Made by a program: the position numbers and the translations under genes
Notes under the pieces: generated by a model
The model's database searches: none
What the model was told of the DNA's origin: nothing
Seen by the model: only the letters and a program-made list of their open reading frames with translations
Shown here: piece by piece, positions 1,323 through 37,811 of the stretch
How the letters are laid out: every line of letters starts with the position of its first letter
Position numbering within the stretch: the first letter of the stretch is position 1
Source: a virus
Taxonomy: Duplodnaviria; Heunggongvirae; Uroviricota; Caudoviricetes
Length of the DNA: 42,581 nt
IMG/VR virus record: IMGVR_UViG_3300045988_019953
Location: 1 to 42,581 of that record
Reading direction: 5' to 3' (one strand)

Positions 1323-3563
1323 CTATTCTAAATCTTCCTCTGTCACTGTCAGCATTTCATTCGGTTCGTATATTGTCTTCGGTCTTAATCTGTCACCCAT
1401 CTTTTCCGGTATCCGGTAGGTGCCCGGTATAACTTCACCGTTAACATCGCACCCTAGCATCAACTCACCGTCTTTCAGCATCTTCTCGAGATGATGGTTG
1501 GTGATGGCGTGGTCGCCAGAATTCGCCACTATCTGCCGTTGTGTAAAACCTCGTCCGGTGTCGTCTGACTGTTGCAGGTCTTCCAGCGCGGCAAGTATTG
1601 ATTCCTTACGCCCTTCATCCTTTCCACGTTTTACGGCATTCTTTACGTTTTCTTTACCTTCTTTCGTCAGCCCTTCTTCCCGCTCTTTCTCCTCGTCAGT
1701 TTTGAACGGCTCGAAGCCCCACGGCATTAACACAAGTGCCTTATGCGGCTCCGGCAGGTCCAGGTTTACGATTGTGCCGTATTTCTCTGTGCTACCGAGG
1801 AACTCAACCGCACGGTACTCTTTCGGTGGTGGCGCTTCACGGAACTGTACCGACTCCAGCACCATGCCAACCGTCTTCTGTTGGGGCCCGTGCTTAAATT
1901 TAGAGTGGTATACGTTTATCTGACGGTCGGTTGCACGCTCAATGGTCAGTTCCACGTCGACGCCCGCATACAAAGCCCCGCTGCCACGGGCTTTCTTTCC
2001 ACCCTTCGGCGTATGGTGGACAACACCTACCGCGGCTTTAGTCGCATCGCGCACTTCTTTCAGGATGGCGATAACTTTACCCATACCTATTGCCGTTGAT
2101 GAACTGTTCTCGTCGAACTTATCAATAGTCAACGCCAGGGTCTGATTAAGGGTGTCGAACGCAACCATGCCGATTGGCTCGTCGCCAGCAGTTTCGCGCA
2201 TTAACTTAATCAGGCTTTTAAGTTTGCCGACTTCGCCCATATCGATGACATGTACATAATCTTTACCTTCCCAACCGTATTTAGCCGCGAGCGCGTCAAT
2301 ACGTGTACGTGTGGCTGCACCGCCTTCACCATCAATATAGAAGTGGTGGCAACGCTGGGTGTCTGCCCCTGCGAAGCGATAACCAGCGGCGCTGAGATAC
2401 ATCATCCCCAGCGTATAGAACGATTTGTACGTGCCAGATTCCCCGACGATATCCCAGATACAATCCGACGGCATATACCCCTCAACGACGAAATCAGCCT
2501 TTACCGGCTCCGGTAACTCGTCCTCCTCTGAGTCTTCGTTATCTTCCAGGTCGTCGAGGCTGCATGAAACAGATTCACGTGCACCCCAGCCGATTGCCTC
2601 AGCGACTTCACTGAACGGCAGCCCTGTAGCATCACACGCGTATTTCCACACCTCTTTCGGCGACATGCCTTCGGTTGCCATGATGTCAGTGTCGTGAATC
2701 ATGGTTACGTTCGGCGCTTCGTAGCCCTCGCGCGGGAAGCATAGCAGGAAGTCATCCGGGCGCGGCGTCGGGTCGCTGTAGTTCTCGGCGTGTTCTGGTG
2801 TAGCAGGCATCTTCAGGCCGCGGGGCGTCATGACGCCGCCGTACTCGAATGCCAGCGCTTCGAACGCGTCAGTAAACGCTGTGCGCAGTTCTTCCGGTAT
2901 CTGGTAATCCGATGCGCTGCTCACCTCGTAATCCGGTATGCCTTCCAGTAGCTCACCCGGGTCAAGCAGGTCATTGCGGCGCGACCAGATAACCCGAGAG
3001 CCAACTGGCGGCAGGTACATCGGCTGCGACAGAGTGAATCCGCTGCGGTCCGCGCCCATGCCTTTGAAGAAGTGCTCCAGCAGTCCATGACGAACACGGA
3101 TGATGTTACCCCCTTCAACCGGACGGGCCAGCGGCATGACTACACGAAAGCGCGGTGACTCATCTGTATGTGACGCCGTGGTATAGAGGCACATCGCCTG
3201 GCGGCTGCGCTTAACCAGGCGCACAGCTTCCTGATACTCTTCCGGCGTCGCACTGTCGAAGTCCAGATACGCCAGCGACGATTTGCTTACAGACGCGTCG
3301 CAGCGGTAGAAGAAGCCTTTACGCGCTTGCTTAAAGTCACCGGTTTCCGGGTCTTTTACGGTGCTGTGTGCGGAGTCACACGCGGCGGTGATGTAGCCCG
3401 GCGCGGTCTTCGGGTTAATTCCGTCACGAACGGCATCGAGCGGCTGGATTAACTCTTTCAGGTCGTCCAGTGTTGCCGTGTGAGTGGTTCTGACGTTTAT
3501 ATCCTTTTTCTCTGCTCGCGAGTTGCGACGTGACCACGAGTAGGATAAAATTACATCGGACAT
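1323..3563 (-). CDS. Replication protein: N-terminal primase-like region fused to C-terminal RecA-like P-loop ATPase (primase/helicase)
   Basis: 746 aa; Walker A-like GESGTYKS and downstream VVHHTPKGG typical of RepA/DnaB-like ATPases; N-terminal domain assignment is inference. Confidence 0.55.
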   Translation of the reverse strand: MSDVILSYSWSRRNSRAEKKDINVRTTHTATLDDLKELIQPLDAVRDGINPKTAPGYITAACDSAHSTVKDPETGDFKQARKGFFYRCDASVSKSSLAYLDFDSATPEEYQEAVRLVKRSRQAMCLYTTASHTDESPRFRVVMPLARPVEGGNIIRVRHGLLEHFFKGMGADRSGFTLSQPMYLPPVGSRVIWSRRNDLLDPGELLEGIPDYEVSSASDYQIPEELRTAFTDAFEALAFEYGGVMTPRGLKMPATPEHAENYSDPTPRPDDFLLCFPREGYEAPNVTMIHDTDIMATEGMSPKEVWKYACDATGLPFSEVAEAIGWGARESVSCSLDDLEDNEDSEEDELPEPVKADFVVEGYMPSDCIWDIVGESGTYKSFYTLGMMYLSAAGYRFAGADTQRCHHFYIDGEGGAATRTRIDALAAKYGWEGKDYVHVIDMGEVGKLKSLIKLMRETAGDEPIGMVAFDTLNQTLALTIDKFDENSSSTAIGMGKVIAILKEVRDATKAAVGVVHHTPKGGKKARGSGALYAGVDVELTIERATDRQINVYHSKFKHGPQQKTVGMVLESVQFREAPPPKEYRAVEFLGSTEKYGTIVNLDLPEPHKALVLMPWGFEPFKTDEEKEREEGLTKEGKENVKNAVKRGKDEGRKESILAALEDLQQSDDTGRGFTQRQIVANSGDHAITNHHLEKMLKDGELMLGCDVNGEVIPGTYRIPEKMGDRLRPKTIYEPNEMLTVTEEDLE

Positions 3564-3623: not shown

Positions 3624-4073
3624 TTATTCGGCGTTTGGTACTGCAAGAGCATACACGCCATCCAGCACCTTAATCAACAAACCTTTTTTACAAAGTCCAC
3701 GCATGGCGGTACAGACAGCACCAAGATTAGTGACATCCTCTTTTACCAAGGCATATACCGCACTAGGCGTAAAACGTTGCCCTTGCTGTTCAAGACACTT
3801 CCCATAGACTAGTTTTTGTAACTCCGTGAGCCTGCCTTTCTCAGGCAAAGGAACCGATATAACATCAAAAGGTTTTCCACCTTTAACCCAATACCGATAT
3901 TTACTCCCATCATAAACACGGTCTACTTCCCCTAAATAACCCAATAAGGTAACCGTCGCGCTAATCGGCCCGTCGAGTTCTATTGCCGATTTAATGTCAT
4001 GTAGTGACGCTCCCGGGCTCTCGGCTAATATCAGATTTAACGATTTCAGAAACTCGTCTAAGTATTTATGCAT
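3624..4073 (-). CDS. Hypothetical protein, possible C-terminal winged-helix
   Basis: 149-aa ORF; start overlaps the stop of the upstream small ORF (ATGCATAA). Confidence 0.5.
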   Translation of the reverse strand: MHKYLDEFLKSLNLILAESPGASLHDIKSAIELDGPISATVTLLGYLGEVDRVYDGSKYRYWVKGGKPFDVISVPLPEKGRLTELQKLVYGKCLEQQGQRFTPSAVYALVKEDVTNLGAVCTAMRGLCKKGLLIKVLDGVYALAVPNAE

Positions 4074-4209
4074 TCTTTTTAGCCTCTCTTAACTGTTTAC
4101 GGTAGGCATTGAAGCATTCACGGCAATAACTGCGTGTGCCTTTTCTGTCATATCGTTTAAGGAACGCACCCTCTTCTTTTTCTTTCCTACACATCTGGCA
4201 AATCTTCAT
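4066..4209 (-). CDS. Small zinc-ribbon protein (47 aa, CxxC...CxxC; below track threshold)
   Basis: ATG at 4207-4209 with GAGGAG 8 nt upstream; two CxxC pairs (CQMC, CREC); stop overlaps next gene start. Confidence 0.5.
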   Translation of the reverse strand: MKICQMCRKEKEEGAFLKRYDRKGTRSYCRECFNAYRKQLREAKKNA

Positions 4210-4227
4210 CTAAATACTCCTCGGTTG

Positions 4228-4256
4228 TTGAAGTACCCAAGATAATGGTACTTCAA
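4228..4256. promoter_or_regulatory. Perfect 10-bp inverted repeat TTGAAGTACC-N9-GGTACTTCAA (candidate operator)
   Basis: Arms at 4228-4237 and 4247-4256 are exact reverse complements; just upstream of the minus-strand replication operon. Confidence 0.5.
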
Positions 4257-4304
4257 GCAAAAAGCAACAACAAAGTTACTAAGATACAAAAGATGCTACA
4301 CGTA

Positions 4305-4333
4305 TTGACTTTTCACTAAAAATGTGCTAAGCT
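4305..4333 (+). promoter_or_regulatory. Sigma70-like promoter TTGACT-17-TAAGCT driving conserved element copy A
   Basis: -35 at 4305-4310, -10 at 4328-4333; 28 of 29 positions identical to promoter at 15639-15667. Confidence 0.55.
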
Positions 4334-4339
4334 CCACCT

Positions 4340-4560
4340 GAGCTTGTGAAGTATGAACAAGCGACCGTGTCACGGCAGGAAACGGAGCGGGGCGTTAGCC
4401 CTGAGTGTAGTTTCGCTGACGCGTCCGGAAGGCCACTGGTCTATTGCAAAAATCCCCTAAGTTACATAAGTAACTAATTTTCCTTAAGTTTCTTAATGTG
4501 CTGTAGATTCGCAACCGTAAAAATGTAACGATTATTGGGCAGGCTTAAAGCCTGCCCTTT
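4340..4560 (+). ncRNA. Candidate structured small RNA, copy A
   Basis: Promoter-to-terminator unit with no ORF; about 115-nt core conserved with copy B, with two compensatory stem substitutions. Confidence 0.35.
4537..4560 (+). terminator. Rho-independent terminator (GGGCAGGCT-TAA-AGCCTGCCC plus TTT)
   Basis: 9-bp GC-rich stem followed by a short T tract. Confidence 0.55.
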
Positions 4561-4630
4561 AGTTACCAAGTAATAAGAATCTACGGCACAACCCAACCTG
4601 AAGAATCACAACGGCAACGTAACTAATCTC

Positions 4631-4659
4631 TTGCACACCCCAATATAATAGGATACTAT
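4631..4659 (+). promoter_or_regulatory. Early promoter TTGCAC-17-TACTAT with dyad AATAG-N4-CTATT (4647-4660)
   Basis: Hexamers with 17-bp spacer; 23-mer nearly identical to those at 15540 and 24940; conserved leader TCACTTATCGAAACGAG. Confidence 0.55.
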
Positions 4660-4693
4660 TCACTTATCGAAACGAGACTGAGGAGTGAGGGTT

Positions 4694-4876
4694 ATGTTTA
4701 AGAAGGGTCAGTTGGTGAAAACAAAGCGCAGCCGGCAACACGTAATAGTTACCAAAGACGAGGATGAATATGGTGTTGTCGCCGTATTTAGCCTTATACG
4801 GAAGAAACGTGGTTATGTTCATCACAATAATTTACAGCTTATCGGCAACAATTTTAAATTCAAAGGGGCGAAGTGA
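4694..4876 (+). CDS. Hypothetical early protein (60 aa)
   Basis: ATG 4694 after AGGAG; track ORF begins at upstream GTG 4685; stop overlaps next start (TGATG). Confidence 0.5.
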   Translation: MFKKGQLVKTKRSRQHVIVTKDEDEYGVVAVFSLIRKKRGYVHHNNLQLIGNNFKFKGAK

Positions 4877-5166
4877 TGGGAGAATTACCTCAATGTGAAC
4901 GCCAGTTCATTAGCTGGTTTATCCCTGTAAATAATTTCAACATTTCTGATTTGCTGGAACTAAGAGAAAAAGGTGCTCTGTGGGTGTGTAACGCCCGAGA
5001 CGTAACAAAGGCCAGGGTATGGAATTTTAGCCTACTGCGTCGCCCTAATAAGTCAGGGGCGGGTGCGGTAACGATGGACTTGTTACATCGCAAAGGTAAG
5101 TTGTTTATGAGAACGGCATCGAATCATGATGCCCGTGCCGACGACTCTGAGGGAGGTTGCCGTTAA
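4876..5166 (+). CDS. Hypothetical protein, paralog A of 15272-15517
   Basis: About 80 percent identical by eye to the minus-strand ORF at 15272-15517; translationally coupled to the upstream gene. Confidence 0.6.
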   Translation: MGELPQCERQFISWFIPVNNFNISDLLELREKGALWVCNARDVTKARVWNFSLLRRPNKSGAGAVTMDLLHRKGKLFMRTASNHDARADDSEGGCR

Positions 5167-5711: not shown

Positions 5712-5858
5712 TGTTCAATAGTTTGGGATTTTACCGAGTGACTTACGCTGCTACACAGCAGCGTATCATTTTTCTCATTTTTGTTCTATTTCACCAAACG
5801 CAACAATAGAAGCGACTATTGCAGGAGATGCAACAATACAAACCCCAATAAAATGTAC

Positions 5859-5887
5859 TTGCACACTAAGATAGAATAGGCTACTAT
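5859..5887 (+). promoter_or_regulatory. Early promoter TTGCAC-17-TACTAT with dyad AATAG-N4-CTATT (5875-5888)
   Basis: Same architecture as 4631-4659; followed by RBS GAGGAGAG and ATG at 5919. Confidence 0.5.
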
Positions 5888-5918
5888 TCATTTACACGAA
5901 CAAGAGGAGAGACAGAAG

Positions 5919-15517: not shown

Positions 15518-15543
15518 ACACCCTCCTCGTTTCGATGTAATGA

Positions 15544-15572
15544 ATAGTACCCTATTATATTGGTGTCTGCAA
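15544..15572 (-). promoter_or_regulatory. Early-type promoter on minus strand (TTGCAG-17-TACTAT) with dyad AATAG-N4-CTATT (15543-15556)
   Basis: 23-mer identical to 24940-24962 and a 1-mismatch reverse complement of 4639-4661; leader matches early promoter leaders. Confidence 0.55.
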
Positions 15573-15638: not shown

Positions 15639-15667
15639 TTGACTTTTCACTAAAAATATGCTAAGCT
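15639..15667 (+). promoter_or_regulatory. Sigma70-like promoter TTGACT-17-TAAGCT driving conserved element copy B
   Basis: 28 of 29 positions identical to promoter at 4305-4333. Confidence 0.55.
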
Positions 15668-15673
15668 CCACCT

Positions 15674-15870
15674 GAGCTTGTGAAGTATGAACAAGCGACC
15701 GCGGCGCGGGCAGGTAACGGAGCGGGACGTAAGTCCTGAGTGTAGTTACGCTGACGCGTTCGGAAGGGCCATACTCTATTGCTTGTGTAAAAAGTAACTG
15801 ATTTACTGAGATTGCGCCGTTTCTATGTTTAAATGATAAGGACTAGCGCCCCGCTTTACGGCGGGGCTTT
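15674..15870 (+). ncRNA. Candidate structured small RNA, copy B
   Basis: Conserved core shared with 4340-4450, bounded by promoter and terminator; no ORF. Confidence 0.35.
15848..15870 (+). terminator. Rho-independent terminator (GCCCCGC-TTTACG-GCGGGGC plus TTT)
   Basis: 7-bp GC stem followed by a short T tract; ends copy B just before the Rz-like gene. Confidence 0.5.
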
Positions 15871-24913: not shown

Positions 24914-24943
24914 TTTAAACCCCTTCATTGTTGGTGTAAGTGA

Positions 24944-37679: not shown

Positions 37680-37811
37680 TCATTCCAGCACCCACAGATA
37701 AATTGCGATTAACAGGCCCAATACGGCTGCCATCATGCCGTATTGGGCCTCGTGACAGTAGACACCGGCAGCAAATCCCGCCAGTACCGCGATAATCAGT
37801 TTACTTAGCAT
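37680..37811 (-). CDS. Small membrane protein (43 aa)
   Basis: Manual translation MLSKLIIAVLAGFAAGVYC...; start overlaps polymerase 3-prime end; below track threshold. Confidence 0.35.
   Translation of the reverse strand: MLSKLIIAVLAGFAAGVYCHEAQYGMMAAVLGLLIAIYLWVLE

Follow-up and report, generated by a model that had tools for sequence, protein, structure and literature searches.

The immunity cassettes of lambdoid phages (cI/cro with OR/OL; imm434, imm21, P22 immC) carry palindromic operators that overlap core promoter elements, and operator and reader gene are exchanged as a unit between homologous phages. LexA SOS boxes and P22 Arc/Mnt operators are repressor sites centred on the −10 hexamer or on the transcription start. 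P2 Ogr and P4 Delta (C-x2-C-x22-C-x4-C) activate late promoters from ca. −55, and in the Mu Com-mom system and at the T4 gp43 operator a small zinc-finger or autoregulatory protein acts on a hairpin located just before the ribosome-binding site. Here, we describe a perfect 10-bp inverted repeat at positions 4228-4256 of the virus record IMGVR_UViG_3300045988_019953 (42,581 nucleotides, all of which were analyzed; hereafter, the window). The repeat lies in front of a leftward replication operon, and, on a narrow balance of the evidence, we predict that it is a repressor operator placed over the core of the operon promoter, P_L, and exchanged together with the gene of its regulator.

As in the lambdoid cassettes, the palindrome overlaps core promoter elements, here predicted ones, and goes together with a putative reader gene in an exchanged unit, whose boundary here falls at the outer arm. 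Unlike in these cassettes, there is a single operator instead of a tripartite array, the phage is virulent and has no lysogeny module, the candidate reader is a 47-amino-acid (aa) zinc ribbon rather than a helix-turn-helix (HTH) protein of the Cro/CI type, and the centres of the half-sites are 19 bp apart rather than ca. 10. With the LexA and Arc/Mnt sites, the locus shares a dyad over −10 and +1, here as predicted, whose occupancy should exclude polymerase, and a presumed repressor encoded in its own operon; however, its sequence does not resemble theirs, its arms are longer, at 10 bp with 9 bp between them, and the protein belongs to another family. The 47-aa protein is, like Ogr and Delta, a small phage Cys4 zinc protein with similar cysteine spacing (C-x2-C-x21-C-x2-C), and in both cases the promoters have dyad symmetry, but Ogr and Delta are activators that act at ca. 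−55, and the 47-aa protein is not a member of their family by sequence: it was not matched to Ogr_Delta in Pfam at E ≤ 0.1, and its membership was rejected on this ground.

The inverted repeat and its conservation

The window is a complete or nearly complete genome of a Kagunavirus (Guernseyvirinae), a virulent siphovirus of E. coli; phage ST20 is the record nearest to it. Its leftward replication operon contains, in this order, the gene of the 47-aa zinc-ribbon protein, the gene of a 149-aa protein and the gene of a 746-aa helicase-primase. The parts of the inverted repeat and the elements around it are as follows:

4228..4237, no strand assigned: gene-proximal arm, + strand TTGAAGTACC, operon orientation GGTACTTCAA, at ca. 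−5 to +5 of the predicted P_L
4238..4246, no strand assigned: 9-nt spacer, CAAGATAAT on the + strand (ATTATCTTG in the operon orientation), which holds the predicted −10 hexamer
4247..4256, no strand assigned: gene-distal arm, + strand GGTACTTCAA, at ca. −24 to −15 of the predicted P_L
4239..4244, − strand: predicted −10 hexamer of P_L, TATCTT, inside the palindrome spacer
4262..4267, − strand: predicted −35 hexamer of P_L, TTGCTT, 17 nt upstream of −10
4217..4222, − strand: Shine-Dalgarno element of the zinc-ribbon gene, GAGGAG, read from the sequence, 5 nt downstream of the palindrome
4066..4209, − strand: 47-aa zinc-ribbon protein, CxxC-x21-CxxC, isoelectric point 9.8, first gene of the leftward operon

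The two 10-bp arms are 100% complementary, and with the 9-nt spacer the element measures 29 bp overall; direct reading and a repeat finder agree on this. The element had been placed by an earlier, sequence-only prediction (hereafter, the original prediction) between the first minus-strand gene start and a rightward promoter, in a divergent gap of roughly 470 bp, and its symmetry, coordinates and position proved correct. The zinc-ribbon gene starts with the ATG at 4209, 19 nt from the end of the palindrome, and the rightward σ70-like promoter (TTGACT at 4305-4310, 17 nt, TGC-TAAGCT at 4328-4333) starts 49 nt to the right of it. The noncoding gap between the divergent units measures 484 nt (4210-4693), close to the earlier figure. 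Nowhere in the genome is the AT content higher than at 4200-4350 (34-36% GC), which is accounted for by the two back-to-back promoters.

In first-order Markov simulations of the window (arms of at least 10 bp, spacers of at most 20), 0.76 perfect inverted repeats are expected per 42.6 kb and ca. 0.008 in the gap, while the whole window holds four. The palindrome is unlikely to be a chance occurrence. There is no further copy of the exact half-site in the window. Half-sites with one or two mismatches are found at chance frequency (38 against 33.7 expected), and a second operator or extra half-sites were therefore rejected; a half-site with one mismatch at 3637-3646 stands without a partner.

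Most Kagunaviruses and Jerseyviruses have the helicase-primase and most of the gap in common but begin the operon with another cassette, the common one in the genus consisting of an HTH_17 “excisionase-like” protein of ca. 56-60 aa and a ca. 77-aa protein. HTH_17-type relatives lack the palindrome, which is confined to a rare Kagunavirus sub-lineage whose leftward operon opens with the zinc-ribbon gene. Among 50,697 phage records, only ST20 and GZMU_E2010 carry this gene; metagenomic assemblies provided 11 more independent contigs, and the arms are identical in all 13 loci beyond the window. The arms are also unchanged in four extra locus records, some of them from the same contigs. Nucleotide homology of the window with HTH_17-type relatives restarts at 4254/4255, inside the outer arm. 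The palindrome is thus part of the exchanged cassette, and its outer arm marks the cassette's edge.

The window and the 13 independent contigs with the same cassette (14 loci) were aligned over the region 4210-4334. The numbers of variable positions were:

Arms: 0/20
Spacer: 4/9
Other noncoding positions of 4210-4334: 34/105 (32%)

The difference between the arms and the other noncoding positions corresponds to a Fisher p of ca. 0.0009, a value that is descriptive only, since the sequences are related. The two longest invariant runs within the aligned region are the two arms, while four of the five nucleotides between the palindrome and the Shine-Dalgarno element vary. The spacer occurs as ATTATCTTG, ATTATCTTA, ATTATATTG, ATTATATTA and GCTATCTTA, and as AGTATAGTG in the more distant contig L022; its only invariant positions are T3, A4, T5 and T8. 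The half-sites are thus more conserved than the spacer and the flanks.

The palindrome is present in all 15 contigs with the zinc-ribbon gene (in L022, as a core) and is absent from contig L009 and from all HTH_17-type relatives. In 14 of these 15 contigs, the 149-aa gene is in the same cassette. Two contigs separate the genes. In L022, an 83%-identical zinc-ribbon protein is followed by an unrelated second gene; the DNA upstream is mostly poorly alignable, yet cTGAAGTACC-AGTATAGTG-GGTACTaCAc is present, so that the AGTACC/GGTACT core, the N9 spacing, a TATAGT hexamer and a TTGCAT hexamer 17 nt upstream are kept, and the gene-proximal arm is partly kept, as GGTACTACAC. In L009, an HTH_17 first gene is followed by a 79%-identical homologue of the 149-aa protein, and there is no palindrome. 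It follows that the palindrome travels with the zinc-ribbon gene rather than the 149-aa gene. Mosaicism is concentrated at the start of the replication operon, where four arrangements precede the same helicase-primase (3624-4209 of the window; L009, L022, L004-L008, L024): zinc ribbon and 149 aa; HTH_17 and ca. 77 aa (most of the genus); HTH_17 and 149 aa (L009); and zinc ribbon and an unrelated gene (L022).

More distant carriers were sought by protein word-index searches, which retrieved close relatives only, by two metagenome scans, which gave no matches, and by scans of viral contigs, which gave one related contig. A match to TTGAAGTACC-N9-GGTACTTCAA at 11467-11495 of L012 (IMGVR_UViG_3300023313_000018) was taken as a chance one, since it falls within coding sequence, in the tail-fibre-like module of an AT-rich and unrelated phage, and given the size of the collection. 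The 14-bp arms seen in phage GZMU_E2010 are the product of a 1-nt insertion unique to that locus and were rejected as a shared feature.

A predicted operator over P_L and its candidate reader

On the operon strand, the sequence in front of the zinc-ribbon gene reads TTGCTT (4267-4262), 17 nt, TATCTT (4244-4239), 29 nt, ATG. For ten loci, including Snoke-type, K1ind1-type (HTH_17) and Jerseyvirus cassettes, which are non-homologous in this segment, we compared the best σ70-like sites located at most 100 nt from the first leftward gene. The pattern TTG(C/A)xT-17-TATxxT is found 28-32 nt before the first leftward start codon in 10/10 loci and all cassette types; the −35 element of the relatives is TTGCTT, TTGCCT, TTGCAT or TTGATT, always with a 17-nt spacer. 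The unchanging bases of the palindrome spacer coincide with T−12, A−11, T−10 and T−7, the key positions of a −10 hexamer, and an alternative −10 candidate located upstream (4286-4281) is less conserved, with changes at T−12 and T−10. Based on the conservation of the hexamers and on the constant promoter layout across cassettes, transcription from P_L is predicted to start near position 4232.

The dyad axis (4242) falls on the predicted −10 hexamer, and the arms cover ca. −24 to −15 and −5 to +5. This geometry would be that of a repressor that excludes RNA polymerase. If P_L is active as predicted, binding of one symmetric dimer, or of two dimers, across both arms would keep the polymerase out, the operon would then become self-limiting after early expression, and operator and regulator gene would form one exchangeable cassette, as in the lambdoid immunity regions. 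The helicase-primase, as a downstream gene of the operon, would presumably also be under P_L control. In an RNA sequencing time course of vB_Eco_K1B4, a Kagunavirus of the HTH_17 type, the equivalent first gene was classed as early, with an early peak, and the helicase-primase was classed as “middle” (PMC12645636). By analogy, this timing is compatible with an early, self-limited promoter. We found no promoter mapping, operator or origin study in the literature on this phage group.

The likeliest binder, judged from sequence, is the zinc-ribbon protein, which would act as an autorepressor: it is the best candidate because of its co-inheritance with the palindrome, its charge and the position of its gene, the first in the operon, which would allow autoregulation. 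The protein is strongly basic (15 lysines and arginines in 47 aa). Compared to L022, its open reading frame contains 17 synonymous and 8 non-synonymous codon changes, which indicates that it is a real gene under purifying selection. The structural model shows a zinc knuckle and a long C-terminal helix at a predicted local distance difference test (pLDDT) score of 83, and the zinc-ribbon label given by the original prediction is roughly right. The sole resemblances found for the protein are to the zinc module of HNH / endonuclease VII proteins, namely phrog_2255 and phrog_1035 (E = 1e-5 to 3e-4) and the fold of PacI (3ldy; query-normalized template modelling score, TMq, of 0.73 with a non-significant E-value). 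The 47-aa protein differs from these proteins in lacking the His-Me catalytic part and any Pfam HNH hit, all its Pfam hits being below the threshold. A role as an HNH / His-Me nuclease was rejected, since only the zinc-binding segment aligns and the whole protein is 47 aa long; if it is related to the HNH / endonuclease VII proteins at all, it is a nuclease-dead zinc module.

The operator reading is thus circumstantially supported by a dyad centred on the −10 element of the best-conserved candidate promoter, by arms that are invariant while spacer and flanks drift, and by a co-inherited gene of a basic zinc-ribbon protein. Several points weigh against it. The centres of the half-sites are 19 bp apart, compared to the ~10-11 bp typical of simple helix-turn-helix dimers, which suggests that the binder is not a compact HTH-like dimer and could be, for example, two dimers or a dimer extended via C-terminal helices. 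P_L is weak by consensus (7/12 matches) and was missed by a stricter promoter scan. In PHROG, the zinc-ribbon protein aligns solely with the N-terminal, zinc-binding part of HNH / endonuclease VII / Lar-like families, it has neither a solved-structure relative by sequence nor a significant fold match, and we know of no relative with demonstrated DNA binding. The association between palindrome and gene could be due to mere physical linkage over 19 nt, both informative recombinants, L009 and L022, are single contigs, and the arms are all identical, leaving no covariation of protein and site to exploit.

The full proposal, that a stand-alone 47-aa zinc ribbon, an apparent nuclease-less descendant of the zinc module of HNH / endonuclease VII proteins, is a sequence-specific DNA-binding autorepressor that reads the palindrome (core AGTACC-N9-GGTACT) at the −10 element of its own promoter, we put forward only tentatively and with some doubt. 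If true, minimal transcription factors of phages would gain a new family, and strictly virulent siphoviruses would be seen to swap “immunity-like” cassettes of regulator plus operator at the head of the replication operon. If confirmed, a compact pair of regulator and operator, the one of 47 aa and the other of 29 bp, would control the replication genes in a group of virulent coliphages that is used in phage-therapy work, and the head of the Guernseyvirinae replication operon would become a swappable control cassette of either zinc-ribbon or HTH_17 type. Otherwise the biology would be conventional promoter occlusion, and the main value would lie in annotating two orphan genes that had no annotation before and in a repressor part that is small and orthogonal.

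Other explanations of the palindrome

If the operon were transcribed from an upstream promoter, the palindrome would form a 10-bp hairpin in the 5′ untranslated region, 5 nt before the Shine-Dalgarno element, and could either stabilize the mRNA or act on translation as an operator, to which the zinc-ribbon protein might bind much as Mu Com does. Binding of mRNA hairpins by small zinc-finger proteins of phages is known from Mu Com, and the T4 gp43 hairpin is a translational operator; these systems are the nearest analogues for such a role. The hairpin is stable (−13.2 kcal/mol, z = −4.9 compared to shuffled sequences), in a longer transcript it nucleates an outer helix in which CUUUUU is paired to the GAGGAG Shine-Dalgarno element, and a promoter-like site, TCAATA-16-TATCTT, with the −10 element at 4286-4281, is present upstream. 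We nevertheless consider this role unlikely. Compensatory changes are seen in no relative, as the stem does not vary in the 14 loci, and the stem of L022 has two uncompensated mismatches (C.C and A.A) despite the conserved protein. The helix that would sequester the Shine-Dalgarno element is disrupted in L010 and has no counterpart in L022. Changes at T−12 and T−10 are seen in the upstream −10 candidate and not in the one in the spacer, and a transcript starting near 4232 would contain one arm only. Furthermore, 20 invariant stem positions favour base-specific contacts with a protein, whereas a stem would tolerate G-U pairs and compensated changes. In Mu Com-mom and T4 gp43, the targets are RNA, and that of Mu lies before the next gene; here, there is no compensation and the −10 hexamer is in the loop, and a DNA site is therefore favoured.

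Related RNA features were also considered. A search of Rfam gave no match at the gathering threshold and none of credible E-value in 4150-4750. An extended helix together with an outer repeat, GTTGTTG (4271-4265)...CAACAAC (4230-4224), was rejected, as it is broken in L003, L010 and L019 and is not recoverable in L022. An intrinsic terminator was rejected as well: the terminator scan was negative, the stem has 40% GC, and no run of T follows it on either strand.

The palindrome may also be an operator with a different reader, be it the 149-aa winged-helix protein, some other protein of the phage or a regulator of the host. The two remaining genes of the leftward operon are:

3624..4073, − strand: 149-aa orphan with a winged-helix domain modelled at its C-terminus, product of the operon's second gene, alternative or auxiliary binder
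1323..3563, − strand: helicase-primase, 746 aa (AAA_25; phrog_3228, E = 8e-299)

Winged-helix dimers are classic readers of palindromes. In the 149-aa protein, the C-terminal winged helix (residues ~80-145) is confidently modelled, with an H-H-H-E-E order of elements at residues 84-143 and block-mean pLDDT values of 71-91 over 81-140, and there is possibly a second one in the N-terminal part; the gene shares the cassette in 14 of the 15 zinc-ribbon contigs, as stated above. The winged-helix-like label of the original prediction is roughly right as regards this C-terminal domain; the N-terminal half is poorly modelled (pLDDT < 50), and the matches by Foldseek, among them Fur and further winged-helix domains, reach a probability of ~0.99-1.0 but are weak, with E ≥ 0.009. 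The protein has no Pfam or PHROG match and essentially no relatives outside its own cluster: an exhaustive search of 1.84 billion representative proteins gave five hits, of which two are convincing, while the remaining three (E = 6e-9 to 7e-4) align residues ~18-116 with segments of 800-4040-aa proteins. That the 149-aa protein needs the palindrome is argued against by one contig, L009, which has the protein without the palindrome; conversely, L022 has the palindrome core without the protein. As for other phage proteins, an XRE-type HTH protein (1090-1305) was rejected as the specific binder, since it is at least 94% identical in ca. 117 Kagunavirus records, phages without the palindrome among them. 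The exact palindrome has no match in 185,579 representative bacterial genomes, which gives no hint of a host regulon, though the test is a weak one. We consider an operator with a reader other than the zinc-ribbon protein unlikely.

It is improbable that the palindrome has no function of its own and hitch-hikes with the adjacent gene as a chance or relic sequence, such as a decayed copy of a promoter motif or a recombination scar. Its + strand does align with the core of a promoter-like motif found in five copies in the window (TTGAAGTAC-CCAAGATAAT--GGTACT vs. TTGCAG-ACACCAATATAATAGGGTACT; shuffle p = 0.002-0.006 per copy, the copies not being independent), and the lineage is young, with most loci more than 90% identical, so that invariance weighs little. 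However, the arms are significantly less variable than the adjacent noncoding DNA, the core survives in L022 though the surrounding upstream sequence has largely diverged, and a perfect 10-bp symmetry would decay without selection. The likeness to the repeated motif may bear on the ancestry of the palindrome and leaves its maintained symmetry unexplained.

Finally, a replication origin or initiator site, at which cassette proteins would recognize the dyad and load the helicase-primase, was the other role allowed by the original prediction and is very improbable: while the repeat heads the replication operon, where the AT content of the genome is highest, near the cumulative GC-skew minimum, and the 149-aa protein may have tandem winged helices like those of plasmid initiators, the dyad stands alone, neither iterons nor direct repeats, extra half-sites (3900-4900) or DnaA-box-like sites being present nearby, the AT-rich spacer is fully explained by the −10 hexamer, the palindrome is absent from Kagunaviruses that share the same helicase-primase and the rest of the gap (K1ind1, with ca. 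95% nucleotide identity over the 5′ end of the gene), and the skew minimum lies at ca. 4550-4700, away from the repeat, at the switch in the direction of transcription, and, being confounded with gene orientation, is not independent evidence.

Neighbouring promoter units and other repeats

In K1ind1-type relatives (K1ind1, L007 ~2525-2580; L008), an 8-bp inverted repeat, CCCATTAT-N29-ATAATGGG, brackets the −10/start region of the equivalent leftward promoter. This dyad is found in a degraded form in phiSD1 and is missing from Kenya-K2, Snoke and L009; as it is not kept across relatives, we make no claim of a cassette-specific dyad and regard it as a weak hint at a cassette-specific operator.

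Between the rightward promoter at 4305 and the genes lie a structured leader of ca. 110 nt and, after it, an intrinsic terminator (4537-4557). The unit of promoter (TTGACT-17-TGcTAAGCT) and leader occurs twice in the window (4305-4565 and 15639-15870, 89% identity), the second copy consisting of 15639-15782 followed by a terminator at 15848-15867. It is also present, in another genomic context, in Salmonella phage L223 (L023 1501-1730, terminator at 1710-1729), and further occurrences are found at 1605-1718 and 14649-14730 of L011. An intrinsic terminator precedes the first gene in each of the copies checked, the two in the window and the one in L223. The leader copies show compensatory changes (GGGGC/GCCCT to GGGAC/GTCCT to GGTGC/GCACT, and CCGT..ACGG to CCGC..GCGG), and the leader corresponds to no Rfam family. 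The architecture of promoter, leader and terminator recalls cis-acting processive-antitermination RNAs, e.g., HK022 put, and the unit may outrank the palindrome in interest. The terminator hairpin at 4537-4557 is bracketed by a 14-nt inverted repeat (4497-4510 / 4577-4590, TGTGCTGTAGATTC / GAATCTACGGCACA) that is 93% complementary. This repeat lies within the segment 4489-4633, which is ca. 80-95% conserved across Kagunavirus and Jerseyvirus and is gene-less in most annotations of Salmonella phages.

The promoter-like motif present in five copies, cTTGCACACCCCAATATAATAGGGTACTATTCAcTTAc (TTGCAC-17-TACTAT; GTACTATTCA invariant), is located as follows:

4630-4666, + strand: copy of the five-copy motif
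5858-5894, + strand: copy of the five-copy motif
1040-1075, + strand: copy of the five-copy motif
15526-15572, − strand: copy of the five-copy motif
24937-24973, − strand: copy of the five-copy motif

Each copy lies ca. 25-35 nt upstream of a gene start, and these are probably the main early promoters of the phage. One copy precedes the XRE/Cro-type HTH gene (71 aa, 1090-1305, + strand), which is located on the opposite strand within the leftward gene block and whose product is ca. 50% identical across Jerseyvirus.

The window also holds two perfect inverted repeats that are larger than the palindrome, at 30728-30772 and 37714-37750, both well beyond chance. The former has 16-bp arms and a 13-nt spacer (TCCGTTACCGTCGAGT...ACTCGACGGTAACGGA), and the latter has 14-bp arms and a 9-nt spacer (AGGCCCAATACGGC...GCCGTATTGGGCCT).

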